This document shows positions 422 through 60,170 of a stretch of DNA of 64,000 bases, piece after piece. Source of the stretch: a bacterium (lineage in GTDB: Bacteria > Patescibacteriota > Minisyncoccia > Phycocordibacterales > GCA-002787175); NCBI GenBank assembly GCA_030699905.1, contig JAUYKQ010000027.1, positions 1,293-65,292 of the forward strand, in the 5' to 3' direction. Each line of letters begins with the position of its first letter. Position 1 is the stretch's first letter. The notes under the pieces were generated by a model. It searched no databases, was not told where the DNA came from, and saw only the letters and a program-made list of their open reading frames with translations. Position numbers and translations under genes: made by a program.

Positions 422-1177
422 TTAATGTGATACGCTCACCAAGTAGCCGATAACTATAAGTCCCAAGATAAAAGCAAAAACCACGCGGTAAAGCTCTTTG
501 TGTCCGGCTCTGTGATGTATTTCCGGAATGATGTCGGATGCGGCAATATAGGTGAAAATTCCTGAAGCCGCTGCCAATAGAAAAGCCAAACGGTTTTCAA
601 AAAATCCGGCTGCGTAGAATCCGATAAACACCCCGACCACAGTCAAAAGTGAAGACAAGATGTTCACCATTATTATATTCAGTTTCTTCCACCCTTGGTC
701 TAAAAGTATTGAGAAGTCGCCGATTTCTTGCGGAATTTCGTGGGCGGCAATGGCGATAGCAGTAGTGAGGCCAAGAGCCGGATTTGCGACATAGGCGAGA
801 GCGATAACAATACCGTCAAGAAAATTATGCAAAGAGTCCCCTGTGATTATAAGGAGAGGCAACGACTCGGTGTGTTCGCCGTGTTCGCCCGCTTCTCCTT
901 CGGTGTGGTAGTGAAAGTATCTCATAAGTACTCTTTCAATGATGAAAAACGCGGTAAATCCCACGAGAAAAGCCAAAAATATCGCATGCGGTTCTTCCAC
1001 CATTTCGACGGCTTCCGGTAAAATGTCCAGAAAAGCAACTCCGATAAAAGCTCCCGCCGAAAAAGACAAAAGAGGAGTTATGACTTTGGCCGCGTAGTTT
1101 GATTTCCATATAAGAAGAAGCCCTCCGACAAGAGAGAAAAGTCCTGCAATAAGAGCATAGAGAGTAAGTTGAAGCAT
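422..1177 (-). CDS. zupT: ZIP-family metal (zinc) transporter, ZupT-like
   Basis: Multi-TM protein with a His-rich loop (HYHTEGEAGEHGEHTE) and the ZIP motifs HNFLDG and HEIPQEIGDF. Confidence 0.8.
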   Translation of the reverse strand: MLQLTLYALIAGLFSLVGGLLLIWKSNYAAKVITPLLSFSAGAFIGVAFLDILPEAVEMVEEPHAIFLAFLVGFTAFFIIERVLMRYFHYHTEGEAGEHGEHTESLPLLIITGDSLHNFLDGIVIALAYVANPALGLTTAIAIAAHEIPQEIGDFSILLDQGWKKLNIIMVNILSSLLTVVGVFIGFYAAGFFENRLAFLLAAASGIFTYIAASDIIPEIHHRAGHKELYRVVFAFILGLIVIGYLVSVSH

Positions 1178-1228: not shown

Positions 1229-1687
1229 CTAATAGCCAAGATAAGCGCAATTTTTACACAAGCCAAAAAATTCAAGCAAATGGTTTTTGACTTTGAATTT
1301 TTTGTCCCGTAAAATCTTTCTTTCCACTTTTTCCAAATCTTCGTCCAAAATAACGTCTTCCACTTTTTCGCACACGGTGCACACCGCGTGATGGTGGTGG
1401 GGAAGTCCCGCTATTTCGTATCTTTTCTTTCCGTCTCCGAATTCAATTTCTGAAATCACTTCTTCTTTCTTTAAAAAATCCAATTCTCGGTAAATCGTTG
1501 TTTTGTTGAATTTTCGCACGGTTTTTGCCGCCTCACTCAAAATAGCGCCAGCCGAAAAGGGCTTCCTGTTTTCAGCCAAAAAACCGACTATAAACGACCT
1601 GTTTTTGGTAACCTTATGTCCACGCTCTTTAAGCGAGCGTAGTATGTTTTCCGAAAATGTCATATTTGCTGTTATGGTACTGTGCAT
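1229..1687 (-). CDS. zur: Fur-family transcriptional regulator, probably Zur. The start is uncertain (MHST at 1687 or MTFS at 1663). The longer N-terminus in the ORF track is a read-through into the family A repeat.
   Basis: Winged-helix N-terminus, an HHHH...CxxC metal-binding region, and a C-terminal CKNC, as in Fur/Zur. It lies immediately upstream of zupT on the same strand. Confidence 0.75.
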   Translation of the reverse strand: MHSTITANMTFSENILRSLKERGHKVTKNRSFIVGFLAENRKPFSAGAILSEAAKTVRKFNKTTIYRELDFLKKEEVISEIEFGDGKKRYEIAGLPHHHHAVCTVCEKVEDVILDEDLEKVERKILRDKKFKVKNHLLEFFGLCKNCAYLGY

Positions 1688-1817
1688 TACGAAATGTCTT
1701 TTTCGGCGAGGTCTTCGTGGCGCACGGAGATTTTTTACTAAAAATCTCCTCTCTCCGGCTAGAGCCGCGCCTCCGAAGGCGCCTCTCAAACCTCGCCTCA
1801 ACACCATTTCGTAATTC
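1684..1817. mobile_element. MITE-like element, family A copy 1. About 135 bp, ends (C)ATTACGAAATG ... CATTTCGTAATTC.
   Basis: Three near-identical copies (here, 19864-20006 and 59937-60078). Internal hairpins GAGATTTTTTACTAAAAATCTC and GCGCCTCCGAAGGCGCC. It generates spurious ORFs (MNYEMVLRRGLRGAFGG...). Confidence 0.8.
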
Positions 1818-1937
1818 AAGGTATAGTAGCAATTTAATAATGTATCCGTTTGAAAAAAACCTAAGGCATAGCGCGTGTCAAAAGTTTCTCTGGCAACGGA
1901 CTACTATATAATATGCAACTGGGTTGCGTTTGTCAAA

Positions 1938-2229
1938 TAAAAAAGCGGCTCTGCTTTGTAAAAGCAGAGCCGTACGCCATCCCGAGATGGCGTACAGTCC
2001 ACAAGAGCGCCCGAACCGTACCAGTTGGTGGCAGTGGACTGTAGAACAAACGCTGGGAGCATCCGTGGCTCAACTCAACGGAGCGCGGTTTAGGCCGGGC
2101 GAAGTCGGCCTTCGGCGCGACGTAGTCACTTCGGCTTGTGACGAAGTCGGCCTTTTCCTCGCGGACATTTCCCTCCAGACAATAGGGGAAAGGTTGAGGA
2201 GCGACAATCAGATGCTCCCAGCTAAAACT
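1938..2229 (-). ncRNA. Candidate structured small RNA of unknown class, about 290 nt and GC-rich. It has its own sigma70-like promoter and an intrinsic terminator.
   Basis: The minus strand carries TTGACA-17nt-TATCAT at 2264-2236. A 12 bp long-range stem (GCTGGGAGCATC/GATGCTCCCAGC) encloses about 165 nt. Several internal hairpins, including C(UUCG)G. It ends in two 3' hairpins followed by a T-run (1944-1972). Not protein-like; the ORF-track entry 1924..2331 translates to low-complexity junk. Confidence 0.5.
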
Positions 2230-2235
2230 TGCAAG

Positions 2236-2264
2236 ATGATACACTTTTACAATTTTTTTGTCAA
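2236..2264 (-). promoter_or_regulatory. sigma70-like promoter (TTGACA, 17 nt spacer, TATCAT) for the candidate ncRNA
   Basis: Read directly on the minus strand: ttgacaaaaaaattgtaaaagtgtatcat. Confidence 0.5.
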
Positions 2265-2390: not shown

Positions 2391-2927
2391 CTACGGACAA
2401 CTGCCGCCGAATGTCATGATGCCGTTCGTACCGTTACCGTAGTGAAATGGTTGACCGTTGCACGCAATTACACCATCAGTGTTTTGTATGGGGTTAGATG
2501 TATCTTCTAAACGATACAATATCATATACCACTGTTGATTTGTCTGTCCCGGAGCGCGATAGCCACCTGAATAATACGAATAGGTGTAATTACCGTTGTA
2601 CGCATGGCCGGGAGATATGCTATTGCTGTTAACCGGATCCACAGGCATCATTGGAAGATACGGCTCCAGTGCCGTGCCGAGGACGCCCGTCTCCCATGTG
2701 GTTTGGTGACTGCTGACCCAGGAGGTATAAGGATAATATCCGCGGTCGTCATAATACAATTCCAACGCTTTTTGAATTTCTCGAATTTCAGTTATCCTCC
2801 TCGTATCCCTCGCCCTCTTTCGCGCGCCGTCTAAACTCGAAAAAACCACTGACGACAGCAGGCCTATGATGGCTATCACCACTAAAAGTTCTATCAGAGT
2901 GAATCCTCGCTTGCTTCGCAAGTTCAC
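2391..2927 (-). CDS. Type IV pilin-like protein with a prepilin-type N-terminal cleavage/methylation domain
   Basis: N-terminus [28 protein letters not shown], which is a class III signal peptide. Gly/Tyr/Asn-rich C-terminus. Confidence 0.85.
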   Translation of the reverse strand: MNLRSKRGFTLIELLVVIAIIGLLSSVVFSSLDGARKRARDTRRITEIREIQKALELYYDDRGYYPYTSWVSSHQTTWETGVLGTALEPYLPMMPVDPVNSNSISPGHAYNGNYTYSYYSGGYRAPGQTNQQWYMILYRLEDTSNPIQNTDGVIACNGQPFHYGNGTNGIMTFGGSCP

Positions 2928-3196
2928 ACCTGTTTTGGAAAAAACAGGTGTGGGGGGTAAACCCTTTTTTATTATTCATATAAAAATTCAGCACCTATGT
3001 CTGCCTCTATGATTTGACCATTATCATAATCTGACCATACCCTATGAGAAAGATAATCGTTTATGAAAAAGACCACTAAAATCAAAAGAGTGAGGCCGAG
3101 AAAGATATCCGACGCGTTGTAGTAAATGACAATCTTGGCATCTTTCCTGCTGTCATGCATATGTCTTTTGTGGATGAATTTAAACATGTTTATATT

Positions 3197-3358
3197 CTTT
3201 GAATTACGAAACTCCAAATCCGCGTCTTTCTTTTCAATTTCGGCTACGGCTTTGCAAAAATTATTCAACAGATACTCTGTATATGCCTCATAATTTTTGC
3301 TTCGCCTCGCCCGAAATTGAAAAGAAATCCATCGGAAGCGAGTTTCGTAACTCAAAGT
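3197..3358. mobile_element. MITE-like element, family C copy 1. About 160 bp, ends CTTTGAATTACGAAACTCC ... GGAAGCGAGTTTCGTAACTCAAAGT.
   Basis: Near-identical second copy at 31531-31692. It is the source of the spurious ORFs 2972..3385 and 31513..31773 (both contain ...SYETRFRWISFQFRARRSKNYEAYTEYLLNNFCKAVAEIEKKDA...). Confidence 0.8.
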
Positions 3359-3402
3359 TATTATACGATAGTTTGTAATGGACACAACCGCTCCAATACT
3401 CG

Positions 3403-5856: not shown

Positions 5857-7122
5857 ATGCAAACACAAACTAACCGACTTGGTAAAAGCGGCGGTTTTGG
5901 CCGTCGCAGACCTTCTTTTTCACGTTCCGGTACTGGTTACCGAGAGCGCAATCATTCTCAACCTTCCGGTCGAGGATTTTCAAGTAATGAGCGTAGCAGA
6001 GGCCGTTTTCGCAAAATGCCGACATTCAATCCTTCTCAATTTATAAATACCAATCCTGCCGATTTTACGGCGGAAGTGTACGAACCCAAACACCTTTTTT
6101 CAACTTTTGGCCTTTCCGCAAAACTTGTAGACGCTATCAGCGCGCTCGGCATGAAGTGGCCGTCTCCAATTCAGGACCAGATTATTCCACATATTCTTGA
6201 AGGTCGCGATGTTATCGGGCTTGCTGAAACCGGAACGGGGAAGACCGCCGCGTTTCTTATTCCGCTCATTGAAAAAACCCTAAAGGCGTACGGCAGACAG
6301 ACCCTCATCCTTACCCCTACACGCGAACTTGCCATTCAGGTTCGCGATGAACTGCAAAAACTTTCAAGCGGAAGCGGTATTTATTCCGTCATCTGCGTCG
6401 GAGGCACAAATATTCGTCCCCAGATTCAGGCATTGCGAAGAAAAAGTCATTTTGTCGTGGGGACGCCGGGACGCGTTCTTGACCTTATAAAACGAGGGGA
6501 TTTCAAACCCCAGTATGTTAGCGCGGTTGTGCTTGACGAAGCTGACAGAATGTTAGACATGGGATTTATCAATGATATGAGAAAAATATTGAGTAGCGCC
6601 CCTAAAGAGCGGGAAACTTTGCTTTTCTCGGCGACCATGTCAGACGCTACAAAACAAATCGTCAAAGAGTTTCTCCGCGAACCGGTTCTTGTGTCGGTAA
6701 AAAAGAGGGACGTAACCGGCAGTATCAAACAAGATGTCGTGCGTTGCAAAGAAGGCGAGAAATTTGAGATTTTGACCTCGCTTCTCGGTAAGCCCGACTT
6801 TACTCGCGTCCTCATTTTCGGAGCTATGAAGCATGGTGTTGAGAAATTGGCAAAACAGCTTTTGGCAAGCGGTATAAAGGCGGAGTCAATCCACGGAAAC
6901 AAAAATCATAGTCAGAGACAGCGGTCTTTGAAGTCCTTTAAAAACGGCGACAGCCGAGTGCTCGTCGCGACCGATGTTGCCGCGCGCGGTATCCATGTAG
7001 ATGACGTTTCTCACGTTATAAACTACGACTTACCCAATACTTTTGAAGATTATGTCCACAGAATCGGGAGAACAGGCAGAGTAGACAAAAGGGGAGTGGC
7101 TCTTACGTTCGTAAGTGTGTAA
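5857..7122 (+). CDS. DEAD-box ATP-dependent RNA helicase with an RG-rich N-terminal tail
   Basis: Motifs AETGTGKT, PTRELA, DEAD, SAT and HRIGRTGR. Confidence 0.9.
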   Translation: MQTQTNRLGKSGGFGRRRPSFSRSGTGYRERNHSQPSGRGFSSNERSRGRFRKMPTFNPSQFINTNPADFTAEVYEPKHLFSTFGLSAKLVDAISALGMKWPSPIQDQIIPHILEGRDVIGLAETGTGKTAAFLIPLIEKTLKAYGRQTLILTPTRELAIQVRDELQKLSSGSGIYSVICVGGTNIRPQIQALRRKSHFVVGTPGRVLDLIKRGDFKPQYVSAVVLDEADRMLDMGFINDMRKILSSAPKERETLLFSATMSDATKQIVKEFLREPVLVSVKKRDVTGSIKQDVVRCKEGEKFEILTSLLGKPDFTRVLIFGAMKHGVEKLAKQLLASGIKAESIHGNKNHSQRQRSLKSFKNGDSRVLVATDVAARGIHVDDVSHVINYDLPNTFEDYVHRIGRTGRVDKRGVALTFVSV

Positions 7123-8114: not shown

Positions 8115-9083
8115 TTGCGAAATGCGGCAGAAATCGGAATTTATGCTATAATAGCGGAAATGAAAGGCGTTTTCCGTAAAATGTTTACGGTGCAAAATAT
8201 CTCGCTTTTTCTGTGTGCCTTGGTTTTTGCTTCGGCCTCGCTATTTTGGGGAGAGCATAAGAGGGTGGGATTGGCAAAAGAGCTGGCCGAAAAATCAGAA
8301 AATGAAAGGCAAGAGTTCGCTTCCTCCACTGAAAAGCTCATGACGCAAGTTATTGAACTTGAAGGAGAAATCACGGCCACCCGTCAGGACAATTCCATTT
8401 TGGCAAATCTTTTGCGAGCCGAACAAACGCAGACAGGCATGTTTAAAGAACAAATAGACAGAATAGCCGGCACTGTCGGTTCTTTGGACAAGTTAAGCAA
8501 TCTTGACCCCGAGCTTCTTCATAAGTATTCAAAAGTATATTTTCTGAACGAACATTACGAGCCGGAAGGGCTTTACGCAATCCCGCCGGAGTTTGCGTTT
8601 GACGAGAAGCAGATGCAAATCCATGTCAAGGTTTGGCCGTATTTGGAAGGGCTTTTGAACTCGGCCAAGCAAGACGGTTTGAATCTTTCGGTTATCTCCG
8701 CCTTTCGCTCTTTTGATACCCAGTCATCTTTGAAATCATTTTACAAAGTGGTTTATGGGGCGGGGACAGCCAATCAGTTTAGCGCCGACCAAGGGTATTC
8801 CGAACATCAGCTCGGTACGGCTGTTGATTTCACTAACCTTCAAATGGGGGCCAGTTTTTCCGGCTTTGAAAATTCGTCTGAATATGAGTGGCTAAAGCAA
8901 AATGCCTACAAATACGGTTTCGCGCTTTCTTATCCGGAAAATAATTCATATTACAAATTTGAGCCATGGCACTGGAGGTTTGTGGGCGTTGATTTGGCTC
9001 ATAGATTAAAAAGGGAAAATAAAAACTTTTACGAACTTGAGCAACGCGAAATAGACAGATTTCTTTTGGTGATTTTTGATTAG
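8115..9083 (+). CDS. Peptidase M15 (VanY-like D-Ala-D-Ala carboxypeptidase) with an N-terminal TM and coiled coil. The start may instead be at 8160 or 8181.
   Basis: SEHQLGTAVDF motif (matching SxHxxGxAxD) and a downstream D...H. The N-terminal hydrophobic segment suggests a membrane anchor. Confidence 0.65.
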   Translation: MRNAAEIGIYAIIAEMKGVFRKMFTVQNISLFLCALVFASASLFWGEHKRVGLAKELAEKSENERQEFASSTEKLMTQVIELEGEITATRQDNSILANLLRAEQTQTGMFKEQIDRIAGTVGSLDKLSNLDPELLHKYSKVYFLNEHYEPEGLYAIPPEFAFDEKQMQIHVKVWPYLEGLLNSAKQDGLNLSVISAFRSFDTQSSLKSFYKVVYGAGTANQFSADQGYSEHQLGTAVDFTNLQMGASFSGFENSSEYEWLKQNAYKYGFALSYPENNSYYKFEPWHWRFVGVDLAHRLKRENKNFYELEQREIDRFLLVIFD

Positions 9084-19856: not shown

Positions 19857-19863
19857 GACAAAA

Positions 19864-20006
19864 CTGTGAATTACGAAATGTCTTTCTCGGCGAGGTCTTC
19901 GCGGCGCACGAAGATTTTTTGCTAAAAATCTTCTCTCTCCAGCGCCGGCCGCGCTTCCGAAGGCGCCACTCAAACCTCGCCTCAACACCATTTCGTAATC
20001 CACAGT
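19864..20006. mobile_element. MITE-like element, family A copy 2
   Basis: CTGTGAATTACGAAATG ... CATTTCGTAATCCACAGT. Nearly identical to copy 1. Spurious ORF 19761..20003. Confidence 0.8.
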
Positions 20007-20088
20007 ATTTTTCGCAATTTAGGATAATTTTGAAAACAAAAAACGCTCTCCGGAAGGAGAGCGTTTTTACGTTCGAAAAGAATGCTCA

Positions 20089-20463
20089 TTAGCAACCGGC
20101 GAAAGCTACAGCTGTGTCTGTAACCGTACCGCTGGTGCAAGCCCCTGCTGAACCTGATGAAGCAGGCGAGAAAGTTACAGAAAAACTAGCCGGACATGAA
20201 CCGGGAGCCGTGGAAGGGGCACCTCCATCACGAGCTGAGCCAACATCAATAGCGGCATCTATGGCGGCTTGAGTAATAGCGCCTGAAAGTCCCTCGCAAG
20301 CTACCAAAAGCGCTCCTTGCGTTGCTCTTACTTCTGACTGAAAAGCCGCTGACCTGGCCTTAGTCCTGGCGCTTCCCAACGATGTAAGAACCACGGAGGA
20401 AAGAATACCGATTATAGCGATAACAACTAAAAGCTCAATAAGTGTAAAACCTTTTTTATACAT
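20089..20463 (-). CDS. Type IV pilin (prepilin-type N-terminal domain)
   Basis: [25 protein letters not shown]; Ala/Ser/Gly-rich C-terminus with two Cys. Confidence 0.85.
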
Positions 20464-25175: not shown

Positions 25176-25420
25176 ATTATTCTGCTTTCAAAAAACTGTC
25201 GTTGCCTGTCTGTTTTTTCAACCGGAAGTATCCGGTCAGGACGTCACTCAACATCCCTTTACTTTCGTCATCATAGCACTGAAAAAGACACCTGTCAATA
25301 TTAAAAGACGTTACAAATACGACACAATTTTATCTCCGCCAAGCCGTTTTTTTGTAGAGATACATCCGGTGGATTTGGTCAAGTGTTACGAAATCCGCGA
25401 CTTTAGTGTATGATAAAGCC

Positions 25421-28640: not shown

Positions 28641-28783
28641 CTTTGAATTACGAAATACAGCAGGCGTCCCCCACGAGGAAAGTCACAAAAAAGTGACCGC
28701 TCCAAGGGCGCTTGCCCGGTCCTAGTCACTTTTTTGTGACTTTCCTCGTGGGGGGGGAAGGCGGGTGTTTCTTAATCCACAGT
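28641..28783. mobile_element. MITE-like element, family B copy 1. About 140 bp, with a poly-C/poly-G core hairpin (CCCCCACGAGG...AAAAGTGACCGCTCCAAGGGCGCTTG...GTCACTTTTTTGTGACTTTCCTCGTGGGGGG).
   Basis: Four copies (28641, 30887, 33773, 49775). The left end is CTTTGAATTACGAAA; the right end is degenerate in this copy. Confidence 0.8.
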
Positions 28784-30776: not shown

Positions 30777-30886
30777 TCATCTCTCCCTAATTCTTAATTC
30801 ATAATTCATAAATCCTAAATCCTATTTCGTGGAGTATCTTTTCCTCCACTATCGTGTTATACTTCTGTGGTAAGATTTATAATAAA

Positions 30887-31026
30887 CTGTGAATTACAAA
30901 ACACCTGCTTCCCCCCCTCGGAAAGCTCCCAAAAAAGTGACCGCTCCAAGGGCGCTTGTCCGGTCCCAGTCACTTTTTTGTGACTTTCCTCGTGGGGGGG
31001 GAGCATGCCGTTTTTTGTAATTCAAG
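30887..31026. mobile_element. MITE-like element, family B copy 2
   Basis: CTGTGAATTACAAAACACCTGCTTCCCCCCC...TTTTTTGTAATTCAAG. It is preceded by short AATTCATA/AATCCTA tandem units at 30795-30826. Confidence 0.8.
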
Positions 31027-31509: not shown

Positions 31510-31530
31510 AAATCAGCGACAGATAGTTCT

Positions 31531-31692
31531 CTTTGAATTACGAAACTCCAATTCCGCGTCTTTCTTTTCAATTTCGGCTACGGCTTTGCAAAAATTATTC
31601 AACAGATACTCTGTATACGCCTCATAATTTTTGCTTCGCCTCGCTCGAAATTGAAAAGAAATCCATCGGAAGCGAGTTTCGTAACTCAAAGT
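31531..31692. mobile_element. MITE-like element, family C copy 2
   Basis: Nearly identical to 3197-3358. Confidence 0.8.
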
Positions 31693-31748
31693 TCTTAGCT
31701 TCGGACAGGCAAAAGACAAATTCGTCTTCTGCTTGACGATATTTTTAA

Positions 31749-33772: not shown

Positions 33773-33919
33773 CTGTGAATTACGAAACACTTGCTTACCC
33801 CCCCACGAGGGAAAGCTCCCAAAAAAGTGACCGCTCCAAGGGCGCTTGCCCAGTCTTAGTCACTTTTTTGTGACTTTCCTCGTGTGGGGGGCCACCTGCC
33901 GTATTTCGTAACTCAAAGT
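33773..33919. mobile_element. MITE-like element, family B copy 3
   Basis: CTGTGAATTACGAAACACTTGCTTACCCCCCCACGAGG...GCCGTATTTCGTAACTCAAAGT. Confidence 0.8.
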
Positions 33920-49774: not shown

Positions 49775-49913
49775 CTGTGAATTACGAAACGCCTGCCCCC
49801 CACGAGGGAAAGCTCCCAAAAAAGTGACCGCTCCAAGGGCGCTTGCCTAGGGCTCAGTCACTTTTTTGTGACTTTCCTCGTGGGGGGGCGACTGCCGTAT
49901 TTTGTAATTCAAG
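49775..49913. mobile_element. MITE-like element, family B copy 4
   Basis: CTGTGAATTACGAAACGCCTGCCCCCCACGAGG...GCCGTATTTTGTAATTCAAG. Confidence 0.8.
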
Positions 49914-52461: not shown

Positions 52462-52490
52462 GAGGTCATTATAACTAAAGATATTGAGCT

Positions 52491-52763
52491 ATGGCAACAA
52501 AAAAGGCGGGCGGTACAGCTAAAAACCTGACTGATTCACAACCAAAGTATCTTGGCGTCAAACTTTATGCCGGACAAAAAGCGGGTATTGGTTCCGTTAT
52601 TGTTCGTCAAAGAGGCACGCGGTACTTGCCCGGTAAAAACGTAGGTCTGGGAAAAGACCATACTCTTTTCGCTCTCAAGGAAGGCAAGGTCTCTTACACC
52701 AACAGGAGAAAAATCAGGTGGAACGGCGACAAACTGACCAAAAAACAAGTTCACGTTACGTAA
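52491..52763 (+). CDS. rpmA: 50S ribosomal protein L27
   Basis: [29 protein letters not shown]...[24 protein letters not shown]. Confidence 0.95.
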
Positions 52764-52949
52764 GAACCTATCTCCAATCTCAGCGCTAAATATGGGGCCA
52801 TAAATAAGAGCTCATCCGCTAAAACGGCGCAATTTCGGCTAAAAAACTTCGCTTCGTCCTCTACATATCATGATATGCCTCGGACTCCAGCTTGTTTTTT
52901 ATCTCGAAATTGCGCCGTTTTACTCGGATGTGAGATTGGAGATAGGTTC
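52764..52949. repeat. About 185 bp imperfect palindromic element: 19 bp perfect terminal inverted repeats GAACCTATCTCCAATCTCA / TGAGATTGGAGATAGGTTC, nested TAAAACGGCGCAATTTCG repeats, and a central CATATCATGATATG palindrome
   Basis: Read directly between rpmA (+) and murE (-). Confidence 0.7.
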
Positions 52950-52955
52950 TAAAAT

Positions 52956-59922: not shown

Positions 59923-59936
59923 AAGAGGTATTAAAC

Positions 59937-60078
59937 CTTGAATTACGAAATGTCTTTTTCGGCGAGGTCTTCGTACGCCACGAAGATTTTTTACTAAAAA
60001 TCTCCTCTCTCCGGCGCCAGCCGCGCCTCCGAAGGCGCCTCTCAAACCTCGCCTCAACACCATTTCGTAATTCACGGT
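59937..60078. mobile_element. MITE-like element, family A copy 3
   Basis: TTGAATTACGAAATG...CATTTCGTAATTCACGGT. Spurious ORF 59884..60075. Confidence 0.8.
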
Positions 60079-60170
60079 ATTAAACGCAAGTTCGCGCTTA
60101 CCGAAATAACGGGGATGAGTGAAGGTTTACGGGCTTTGCGAAGCCCGTCGTGACCAAAAACTCCCCTCTC

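Follow-up and report, generated by a model that had tools for sequence, protein, structure and literature searches.

Non-coding RNAs of the candidate-phyla-radiation bacteria are almost uncharted, and no relevant publication on their RNAs or repeats was found in a survey of the literature. Among better described systems, the 'type I' 3'-UTR small RNAs of enterobacteria, such as DapZ and MicL, are transcribed from a promoter of their own downstream of a gene whose terminator they share. The fold of RNase P RNA contains the P4 pseudoknot, with the strand order P2'-P4', and the loops of most characterised structured RNAs are A-rich.

The locus described here lies in a 64-kb window (the whole stretch of DNA analysed) from an uncultured Patescibacteria-like bacterium, in which ~450 nt without a credible ORF separate the stop codon of a pilin-like gene from zur-zupT. 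Inside this gap is a candidate RNA of ~285-290 nt, spanning ~2229 to ~1940 on the minus strand, with its start placed from the promoter spacing. With moderate confidence, we interpret it as a separate, lineage-specific orphan non-coding transcription unit on the minus strand, built from hairpin repeats. The features of the locus are as follows.

2391-2927, minus strand: pilin-like gene with an N-terminal methylation motif, upstream of the RNA.
2236-2264, minus strand: sigma-70-type promoter, with the -35 hexamer TTGACA (2264-2259), a 17-nt spacer, and the -10 hexamer TATCAT (2241-2236); 11/12 matches.
~2229-2230 (A), minus strand: predicted transcription start, placed by spacing.
1938-1972, minus strand: intrinsic terminator, with a 12-bp stem CGGCUCUGCUUU/AAAGCAGAGCCG, the loop UAC, and then CUUUUUUAUU.
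1908-1936, minus strand: zur promoter with a palindromic operator, outside the RNA, TTGACAAACGCAACCCAGTTGCATATTAT; 11/12 match.
1677-1836, no strand assigned: palindromic repeat element of family A, also present at 19861-20020 and 59933-60092.
Within 1229-1819, minus strand: zur ORF with a Pfam FUR domain.
422-1177, minus strand: zupT with a Pfam Zip domain.

The preliminary description of this DNA had pointed to a near-consensus promoter, a GC-rich island without a credible ORF, and two 3' hairpins with a T-run, all of which were confirmed. The minus-strand sigma-70 promoter (TTGACA, 17 nt, TATCAT) has 11/12 matches at 2264-2236, a score reached by four sites in the 64 kb versus 1.6 ± 1.3 expected from shuffles. 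The minus strand carries all four; two of them bracket the candidate RNA (2264-2236 and 1936-1908), and the other two precede protein-coding ORFs. In favour of a transcription unit, the three sites other than that of the candidate all precede plausible units, namely zur and the two protein-coding ORFs. At one of the latter (52468-52497, minus strand), the -10 hexamer is followed by the ATG (52461) after 7 nt, which suggests a leaderless mRNA; the other (25270-25298, minus strand) is separated by a leader of ~90 nt from a downstream 534-aa ORF with abundant proline and serine/threonine repeats. At the 3' end, a consensus scan of the minus strand identified two terminator-like hairpins, 1997-1970 and 1972-1946, the second being the terminator hairpin that is followed by the U-run CTTTTTTATT. 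The GC content is 0.54-0.59 across 1901-2200, and ~0.37-0.47 in the flanks. The candidate region is crossed by two ORFs, a minus-strand one of 103 aa and a plus-strand one of 135 aa. Neither has a Pfam match, and the former begins ahead of the predicted transcription start and continues past the terminator. A search of 5.8 billion predicted proteins with a concatenated six-frame translation of the region, a pseudo-protein aimed at mis-called ORFs over homologous RNAs, returned nothing at E ≤ 10. The candidate is single copy and located in a core-chromosome region with fmt, def, priA, murA, mreBC, frr, greA, and mraZ-rsmH-ftsI; no mobile-element or RNA-guided enzyme genes are present among the ORFs scanned out to ~37.8 kb.

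It had also been suggested that the RNA could be a riboswitch or leader of zur-zupT; such a 5' leader would control the two genes by attenuation at the 3' terminator. Its position upstream of zur-zupT in the same orientation, the terminator at its end, and the alternative pairings possible in its repeat core fit such a leader. However, a strong terminator closes the RNA, and the true zur promoter begins only afterwards, with a spacing of 10 nt between the terminator and the -35 hexamer. A palindrome, ACGCAAC-NN-AGTTGCGT, is located between the -35 and -10 hexamers of this promoter; the palindrome at 1936-1908 was first scored as a terminator-like hairpin and corresponds to the conserved zur operator, whose match at 1908-1936 is the only one in the 64-kb window. 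In three related lineages, the same promoter with the operator immediately precedes zur.

L002, ~1622-1650: zur upstream region, TTGACTAACGCAACTGAGTTGCGTTAGTAT.
L006, ~5964-5992: zur upstream region, TTGACAAACGCAACTCAGTTGCGTATAAT.
L008/L009, ~5965-5993 in L008: zur upstream region, TTGACAAACGCAACTTAGTTGCGTATTAT.

The spacers upstream of zur in these lineages are 64-118 nt long without a structured island, and blastn of the candidate RNA against the three loci gave 12-nt chance matches only. In these relatives the ATG of zur follows the -10 hexamer by only ~8-25 nt, and the zur mRNA is therefore nearly leaderless. The palindromic operator is a candidate Zur box in four Patescibacteria-like lineages. 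Because the conserved zur promoter and operator are located downstream of the terminator and the spacers of the relatives lack the RNA, the candidate is a unit separate from zur. Furthermore, 80 nt and two stable hairpins separate the 3' strand of the closing helix P1 from the terminator, leaving no obvious antiterminator, and no Rfam riboswitch matches the element. A leader of zur-zupT is thus extremely improbable; the analysis removes the tempting but wrong 'zinc riboswitch' reading, and defines a real and conserved zur promoter/operator.

The predicted fold of the candidate consists of a closed multi-branch domain and three adjacent perfect hairpins, with the following elements.

2052-2222, minus strand: Domain I, ~171 nt, from the minimum-energy fold; z -5.97 alone.
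2222-2209 with 2065-2052, minus strand: P1, 14 pairs, pair probability 0.97.
2202-2193 with 2079-2068, minus strand: P2, pair probability 0.97.
2191-2168, minus strand: P3 hairpin, pair probability 0.87.
2162-2157 with 2088-2083, minus strand: inner stem of Domain I leading to P5 and P6, from the minimum-energy fold.
2152-2146 with 2121-2114, minus strand: P5, enclosing the hairpin 2142-2125, from the minimum-energy fold; alternative registers possible.
2111-2092, minus strand: P6, from the minimum-energy fold; alternative registers possible.
2092-2154, minus strand: core of Domain I, a self-complementary tandem repeat with a 21-nt unit in 2.6 degenerate copies.
1994-2042, minus strand: hairpin A, with a 9-bp outer stem ACAGUCCAC/GUGGACUGU and a branched tip.
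1970-1997, minus strand: hairpin B, 8-12 bp with the loop UCGG, abutting hairpin A and the terminator; it occupies 1993-1974 in the predicted architecture.

A 306-nt stretch of the minus strand has a folding energy of -137.1 kcal/mol versus -99.3 ± 4.8 kcal/mol in dinucleotide shuffles (z -7.84), and the halves taken separately give z-scores of -5.97 (5' domain) and -7.34 (3' hairpins). The 12-bp long-range helix of the preliminary description, formed by GCTGGGAGCATC (2052-2063) and GATGCTCCCAGC (2211-2222), is present and grows to 14 pairs in the minimum-energy fold. By our own estimate, the chance of a 12-bp inverted repeat within 330 nt is ~0.003. Both flanks of P1 carry GTTT. The C(UUCG)G tetraloop described together with this helix proved to exist on the plus strand only (CCTTCGG at 2110-2116, and ACTTCGGC near 2129), and reads CCGAAGG on the proposed RNA strand; the UUCG runs that do occur on the latter are flanked by C...U and C...C, and hence form no cUUCGg loops. 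Since the opposite strand folds alike (-139.6 kcal/mol, z -7.87) and only 4 of the 97 predicted pairs are G-U, the stems being near-perfect Watson-Crick, the fold is uninformative on which strand is the RNA. The unpaired positions on the minus strand are U/C-rich and G-poor, unlike the A-rich loops mentioned above, and the strand is therefore assigned from the promoter and terminator alone. After regression of the folding energy on GC content, the candidate falls outside the 25 most extreme 200-nt windows of the 64 kb, which are mostly palindromic repeat elements.

Repeats are found within the candidate as well. Tandem Repeats Finder (TRF) identified a period of 21 with 2.6 copies at 2100-2154, and an exact 13-nt direct repeat, AAGGCCGACUUCG, occurs on the plus strand at 2100-2112 and 2142-2154, 42 nt apart (chance of such a pair, ~6e-4 by our own estimate). 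The 21-nt unit, GGCCGAC-UUC-GUCGNGCC-GAA (in DNA, GGCCGAC-TTC-GTCGNGCC-GAA), is self-complementary, and can form 7-bp hairpins in two registers on either strand. The 18-nt hairpin unit occurs nowhere in the 64-kb window beyond the candidate. In a scan of a genome collection with the paired 11-mer, the matches listed were mostly chance matches in GC-rich genomes, with one lead, a Saccharibacteria-labelled contig (L032, 3185-3419) in which the 21-nt unit is repeated 11 times between two tRNA genes. A metagenome scan with GCCGAAGGCCGACTTCGNCNGGCC gave five contigs, one being a chance match in a 71%-GC contig. Two of them have the array in the same tRNA-tRNA spacer (L144, ~5921-5966, ~2 units; L143, ~5926-6166, ~11 units), and two have a shorter one in the dnaG-rpoD spacer, in antisense orientation to the two genes (L142, 4425-4478; L145, ~8729-8783). 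Within the tRNA operon, it is the transcribed strand that carries the motif. The distinct low-GC contigs with the module differ little in its sequence, and a 24-nt stretch of it is common to the candidate, the Saccharibacteria-labelled contig, and other low-GC contigs. The inner 55-64 nt of the candidate are ~80% identical to these arrays, and the rest of the candidate matches none of them; a palindromic unit that is common to unrelated intergenic sites and varies in copy number is seen in the 21-nt core only. Much of the impressive fold stems from a palindromic tandem repeat common to those low-GC contigs that carry it, which calls for caution in structure-based RNA discovery in repeat-rich genomes.

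The distribution of the module bears on the idea that the candidate is a new class of conserved trans-acting structured RNA, serving as a riboregulator or with the 21-nt hairpins as a scaffold for an RNA-binding protein or nuclease, whose homologues were missed through lineage isolation and exact-word searches. Such a class would be consistent with a discrete promoter-to-terminator unit whose promoter ranks among the four best of the 64 kb, with its single copy in a core-chromosome region, with two identical 13-nt motifs within one RNA, and with the recurrence of the 24-nt stretch in Saccharibacteria-labelled and other low-GC contigs, on the transcribed strand in the tRNA operon. However, outside the 21-nt module the candidate has nothing in common with any sequence found; the module in L142 is antisense to dnaG-rpoD, and is therefore orientation-independent, like a DNA palindrome; the difference between 2 and 11 copies at one tRNA spacer points to slippage rather than constraint; and the stems are perfect with almost no G-U pairs. 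On balance we consider a new class unlikely. Its more specific form is improbable, namely that the candidate is the first recognised member of a Patescibacteria-specific RNA class, in which the 21-nt module would be displayed to a conserved RNA-binding protein or nuclease, either from tRNA-operon spacers or, as here, from a dedicated and strongly promoted sRNA.

In searches for known families with Rfam 15 (4227 models), the whole window yielded three tRNAs only at the gathering thresholds, and the 601-nt and 295-nt stretches around the candidate yielded noise at E ≤ 10 (14-19 bits versus thresholds of 58-65); ARAGORN found no tmRNA in the window. The cmscan comparison thus assigned no family to either stretch even at E ≤ 10, and the failure of the preliminary description to match the element to the RNase P, tmRNA, SRP, or 6S RNA consensus was upheld. 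No match was obtained by blastn of the candidate against phage and plasmid collections, viral collections gave chance matches in GC-rich coding DNA or nothing, and an exact 23-mer from the central junction was absent from the JGI metagenomes. There is no second copy of the whole element within the 64-kb window, and no homologue of it among the matches listed from the protein, genome, metagenome, viral, phage, and plasmid collections, the searches of public collections being such that exact words are needed and distant homologues may be missed. Tracing synteny through Zur, we found the nearest non-self protein to be 54% identical (the named matches belong to Patescibacteria, Levyibacteriota, and Minisyncoccia); the gene order is not kept, and no RNA is located upstream. 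The neighbouring 651-aa protein (Q8P86_03360) has, besides itself, only a 25%-identical relative in another gene context. The population from which the window comes is also present in run SRR13727534. From these sequence comparisons, close relatives suitable for alignment and covariation do not seem to exist in the searched collections, and the missing homologues could reflect lineage isolation rather than a young element.

These searches also bear on a highly divergent housekeeping RNA, whether RNase P RNA, tmRNA, SRP RNA, or 6S RNA, to which the candidate is similar in size, strong promoter, terminator, and core-genome location. Two strings, GAGGAAAAGGCCG and CCCGGCCUAA, have a superficial likeness to the P4 strands of RNase P; however, they are nested inside P2 and do not follow the pseudoknot order P2'-P4'. 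The candidate has no Rfam match at E ≤ 10 (295 nt and 601 nt) and no tmRNA call by ARAGORN, and its Domain I is multi-branched, not a 6S-like rod with a central bubble. Moreover, Rfam detects a class A RNase P RNA of 335 nt on the low-GC contig L144 (1540-1874, plus strand; 122 bits), and the standard model therefore works on the RNase P RNA of such contigs. We regard a housekeeping RNA as very improbable. RNase P RNA itself (P4 pseudoknot, CR-I/CR-V strands, order P2'-P4'-P1') was rejected on topology and the missing cmscan match, and tmRNA (whose 5' and 3' ends together form a tRNA-like domain, and which carries a tag reading frame) for want of an ARAGORN or Rfam match. A retron ncRNA was likewise rejected: the inverted repeat P1 is present, but zur/zupT is located downstream and the pilin-like gene upstream, and no RT domain was found among the 35 ORFs scanned by Pfam. 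A ToxI-like type III antitoxin or a TIGR array does not apply either, the candidate having 2.6 degenerate units without spacers and unrelated neighbour genes (no ToxN or Tas).

The surroundings of the candidate are rich in repeats, with 18 repeat families in the window. Family A (~135-160 nt, copies 84-88% identical) is bounded by GAATTACGAAATG ... CATTTCGTAAT, and its copy at 1677-1836 has been inserted downstream of the zur promoter, ahead of the zur ORF; the preliminary description had placed it between the RNA and zur-zupT. The end of this copy overlaps the upstream in-frame ATG of the 152-aa version of the zur ORF called on Logan contig L001, and another copy of family A is located directly downstream of a second pilin-like gene (20089-20463). 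Further strongly folding palindromic repeats are found at 28667-28757, 30911-31001, 33801-33891, and 49798-49888, at 3196-3363 and 31530-31697, and at 52751-52950; many are flanked by GTGAATTACGAAA and TTTCGTAATTCAAG, and they predominate among the 200-nt windows of highest stability. The zupT stop codon is directly followed by a tandem repeat of a heptamer, (CCTAAAT)n (344-432), which has a second site at 30786-30839. For its small size, the genome has an unusually large number of MITE-like elements.

This setting lends some weight to the proposal that there is no dedicated RNA gene, and that selfish or slippage-derived palindromic repeats of the MITE/REP kind are transcribed only as the 3' UTR of the pilin-like gene, the promoter being fortuitous. 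Besides the 18 families, many palindromic elements of the window fold more strongly than the candidate after GC correction, the core is a tandem palindromic repeat known from other contigs, P1, with GTTT at either side, resembles a terminal inverted repeat of 12-14 bp, and the two strands fold equally well. The pilin-like gene, too, has no terminator of its own: the consensus scan found no terminator-like site between its stop codon and the RNA promoter, and read-through transcripts would therefore end at the hairpins of the candidate. Against this proposal, P1 is preceded, at a distance of 7 nt, by a promoter with 11/12 matches and a spacer of the ideal 17 nt; only 1.6 such sites are expected per 64 kb, and the three other 11/12 sites are all sensibly placed. 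No part of the candidate has a second copy in the window, and the candidate lacks the GAATTACGAAA / TTTCGTAATTC ends of the repeat families of the window. We judge this proposal to be a minority possibility, though one of some substance.

Taken together, the separate transcription unit remains the interpretation that we prefer. The suggestion of an independent small RNA in the preliminary description best accounts for the transcription signals, in that a promoter and a terminator of its own bracket a non-coding stretch, but no homologue of the whole element was found that could back it by conservation or covariation. In the proposed mechanism, RNA polymerase would start near 2229, read-through from the pilin-like gene would enter the same stretch, and the resulting RNA is expected to be very stable. 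The hairpins would halt all upstream transcription before the Zur-controlled promoter, so that zur-zupT would be insulated, and would protect the 3' ends of the small RNA and of the pilin mRNA from nucleases. The most defensible role is therefore one in cis, as a terminator, insulator, and 3'-end stabiliser; a possible role in trans, whether as a riboregulator or as a platform for protein binding, found no support in the analysis. A single terminator would be enough for insulation, as in L008, which leaves the length of 290 nt and the dedicated promoter unexplained. As for origin, the small RNA was probably assembled partly from a palindromic repeat, and its body looks to be composed of young palindromic or tandem hairpin repeats, not of an old conserved fold. 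The few G-U pairs, the equal strands, the U/C-rich unpaired bases, the expansion-prone palindromic core, and the repeat-crowded window all count against an old selected fold. On the other hand, the element and its 18-nt unit are single copy in the window, which is not the behaviour of a dispersed selfish repeat.

In comparison with known systems, the candidate is similar to metal-homeostasis leaders and riboswitches (e.g. the czcD/NiCo riboswitch of Rfam) in being located upstream of a metal regulator/transporter pair, structured, and terminator-ended. It differs from them in that it is split from the operon by the operon's own promoter/operator, is absent at orthologous loci, and has no Rfam match. 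Like RNase P RNA and 6S RNA, it extends over a few hundred nucleotides from promoter to terminator and lies in a core-genome region, but it matches neither in sequence or structure, has a nested topology, and carries three extra 3' hairpins after the closing helix. The resemblance to REP/BIME sequences and MITEs includes the near-perfect GC-rich hairpins with equal folding on both strands, the tandem palindromic core recurring with variable copies in unrelated intergenic sites of other genomes, and the intergenic location at an operon end with possible 12-14-bp terminal inverted repeats. Unlike those elements, the candidate and its unit are undispersed within 64 kb, have a strong promoter of their own, and come with no clear target-site duplication and no associated transposase. 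Relative to typical seed-pairing sRNAs, the predicted RNA is much longer and far more structured, with no target, seed, or chaperone evident. Finally, the type I 3'-UTR sRNAs resemble the candidate in that its promoter is located just downstream of the pilin-like gene, that it is discrete and non-coding, and that its 3' end is set by the one intrinsic terminator that the upstream gene can use.
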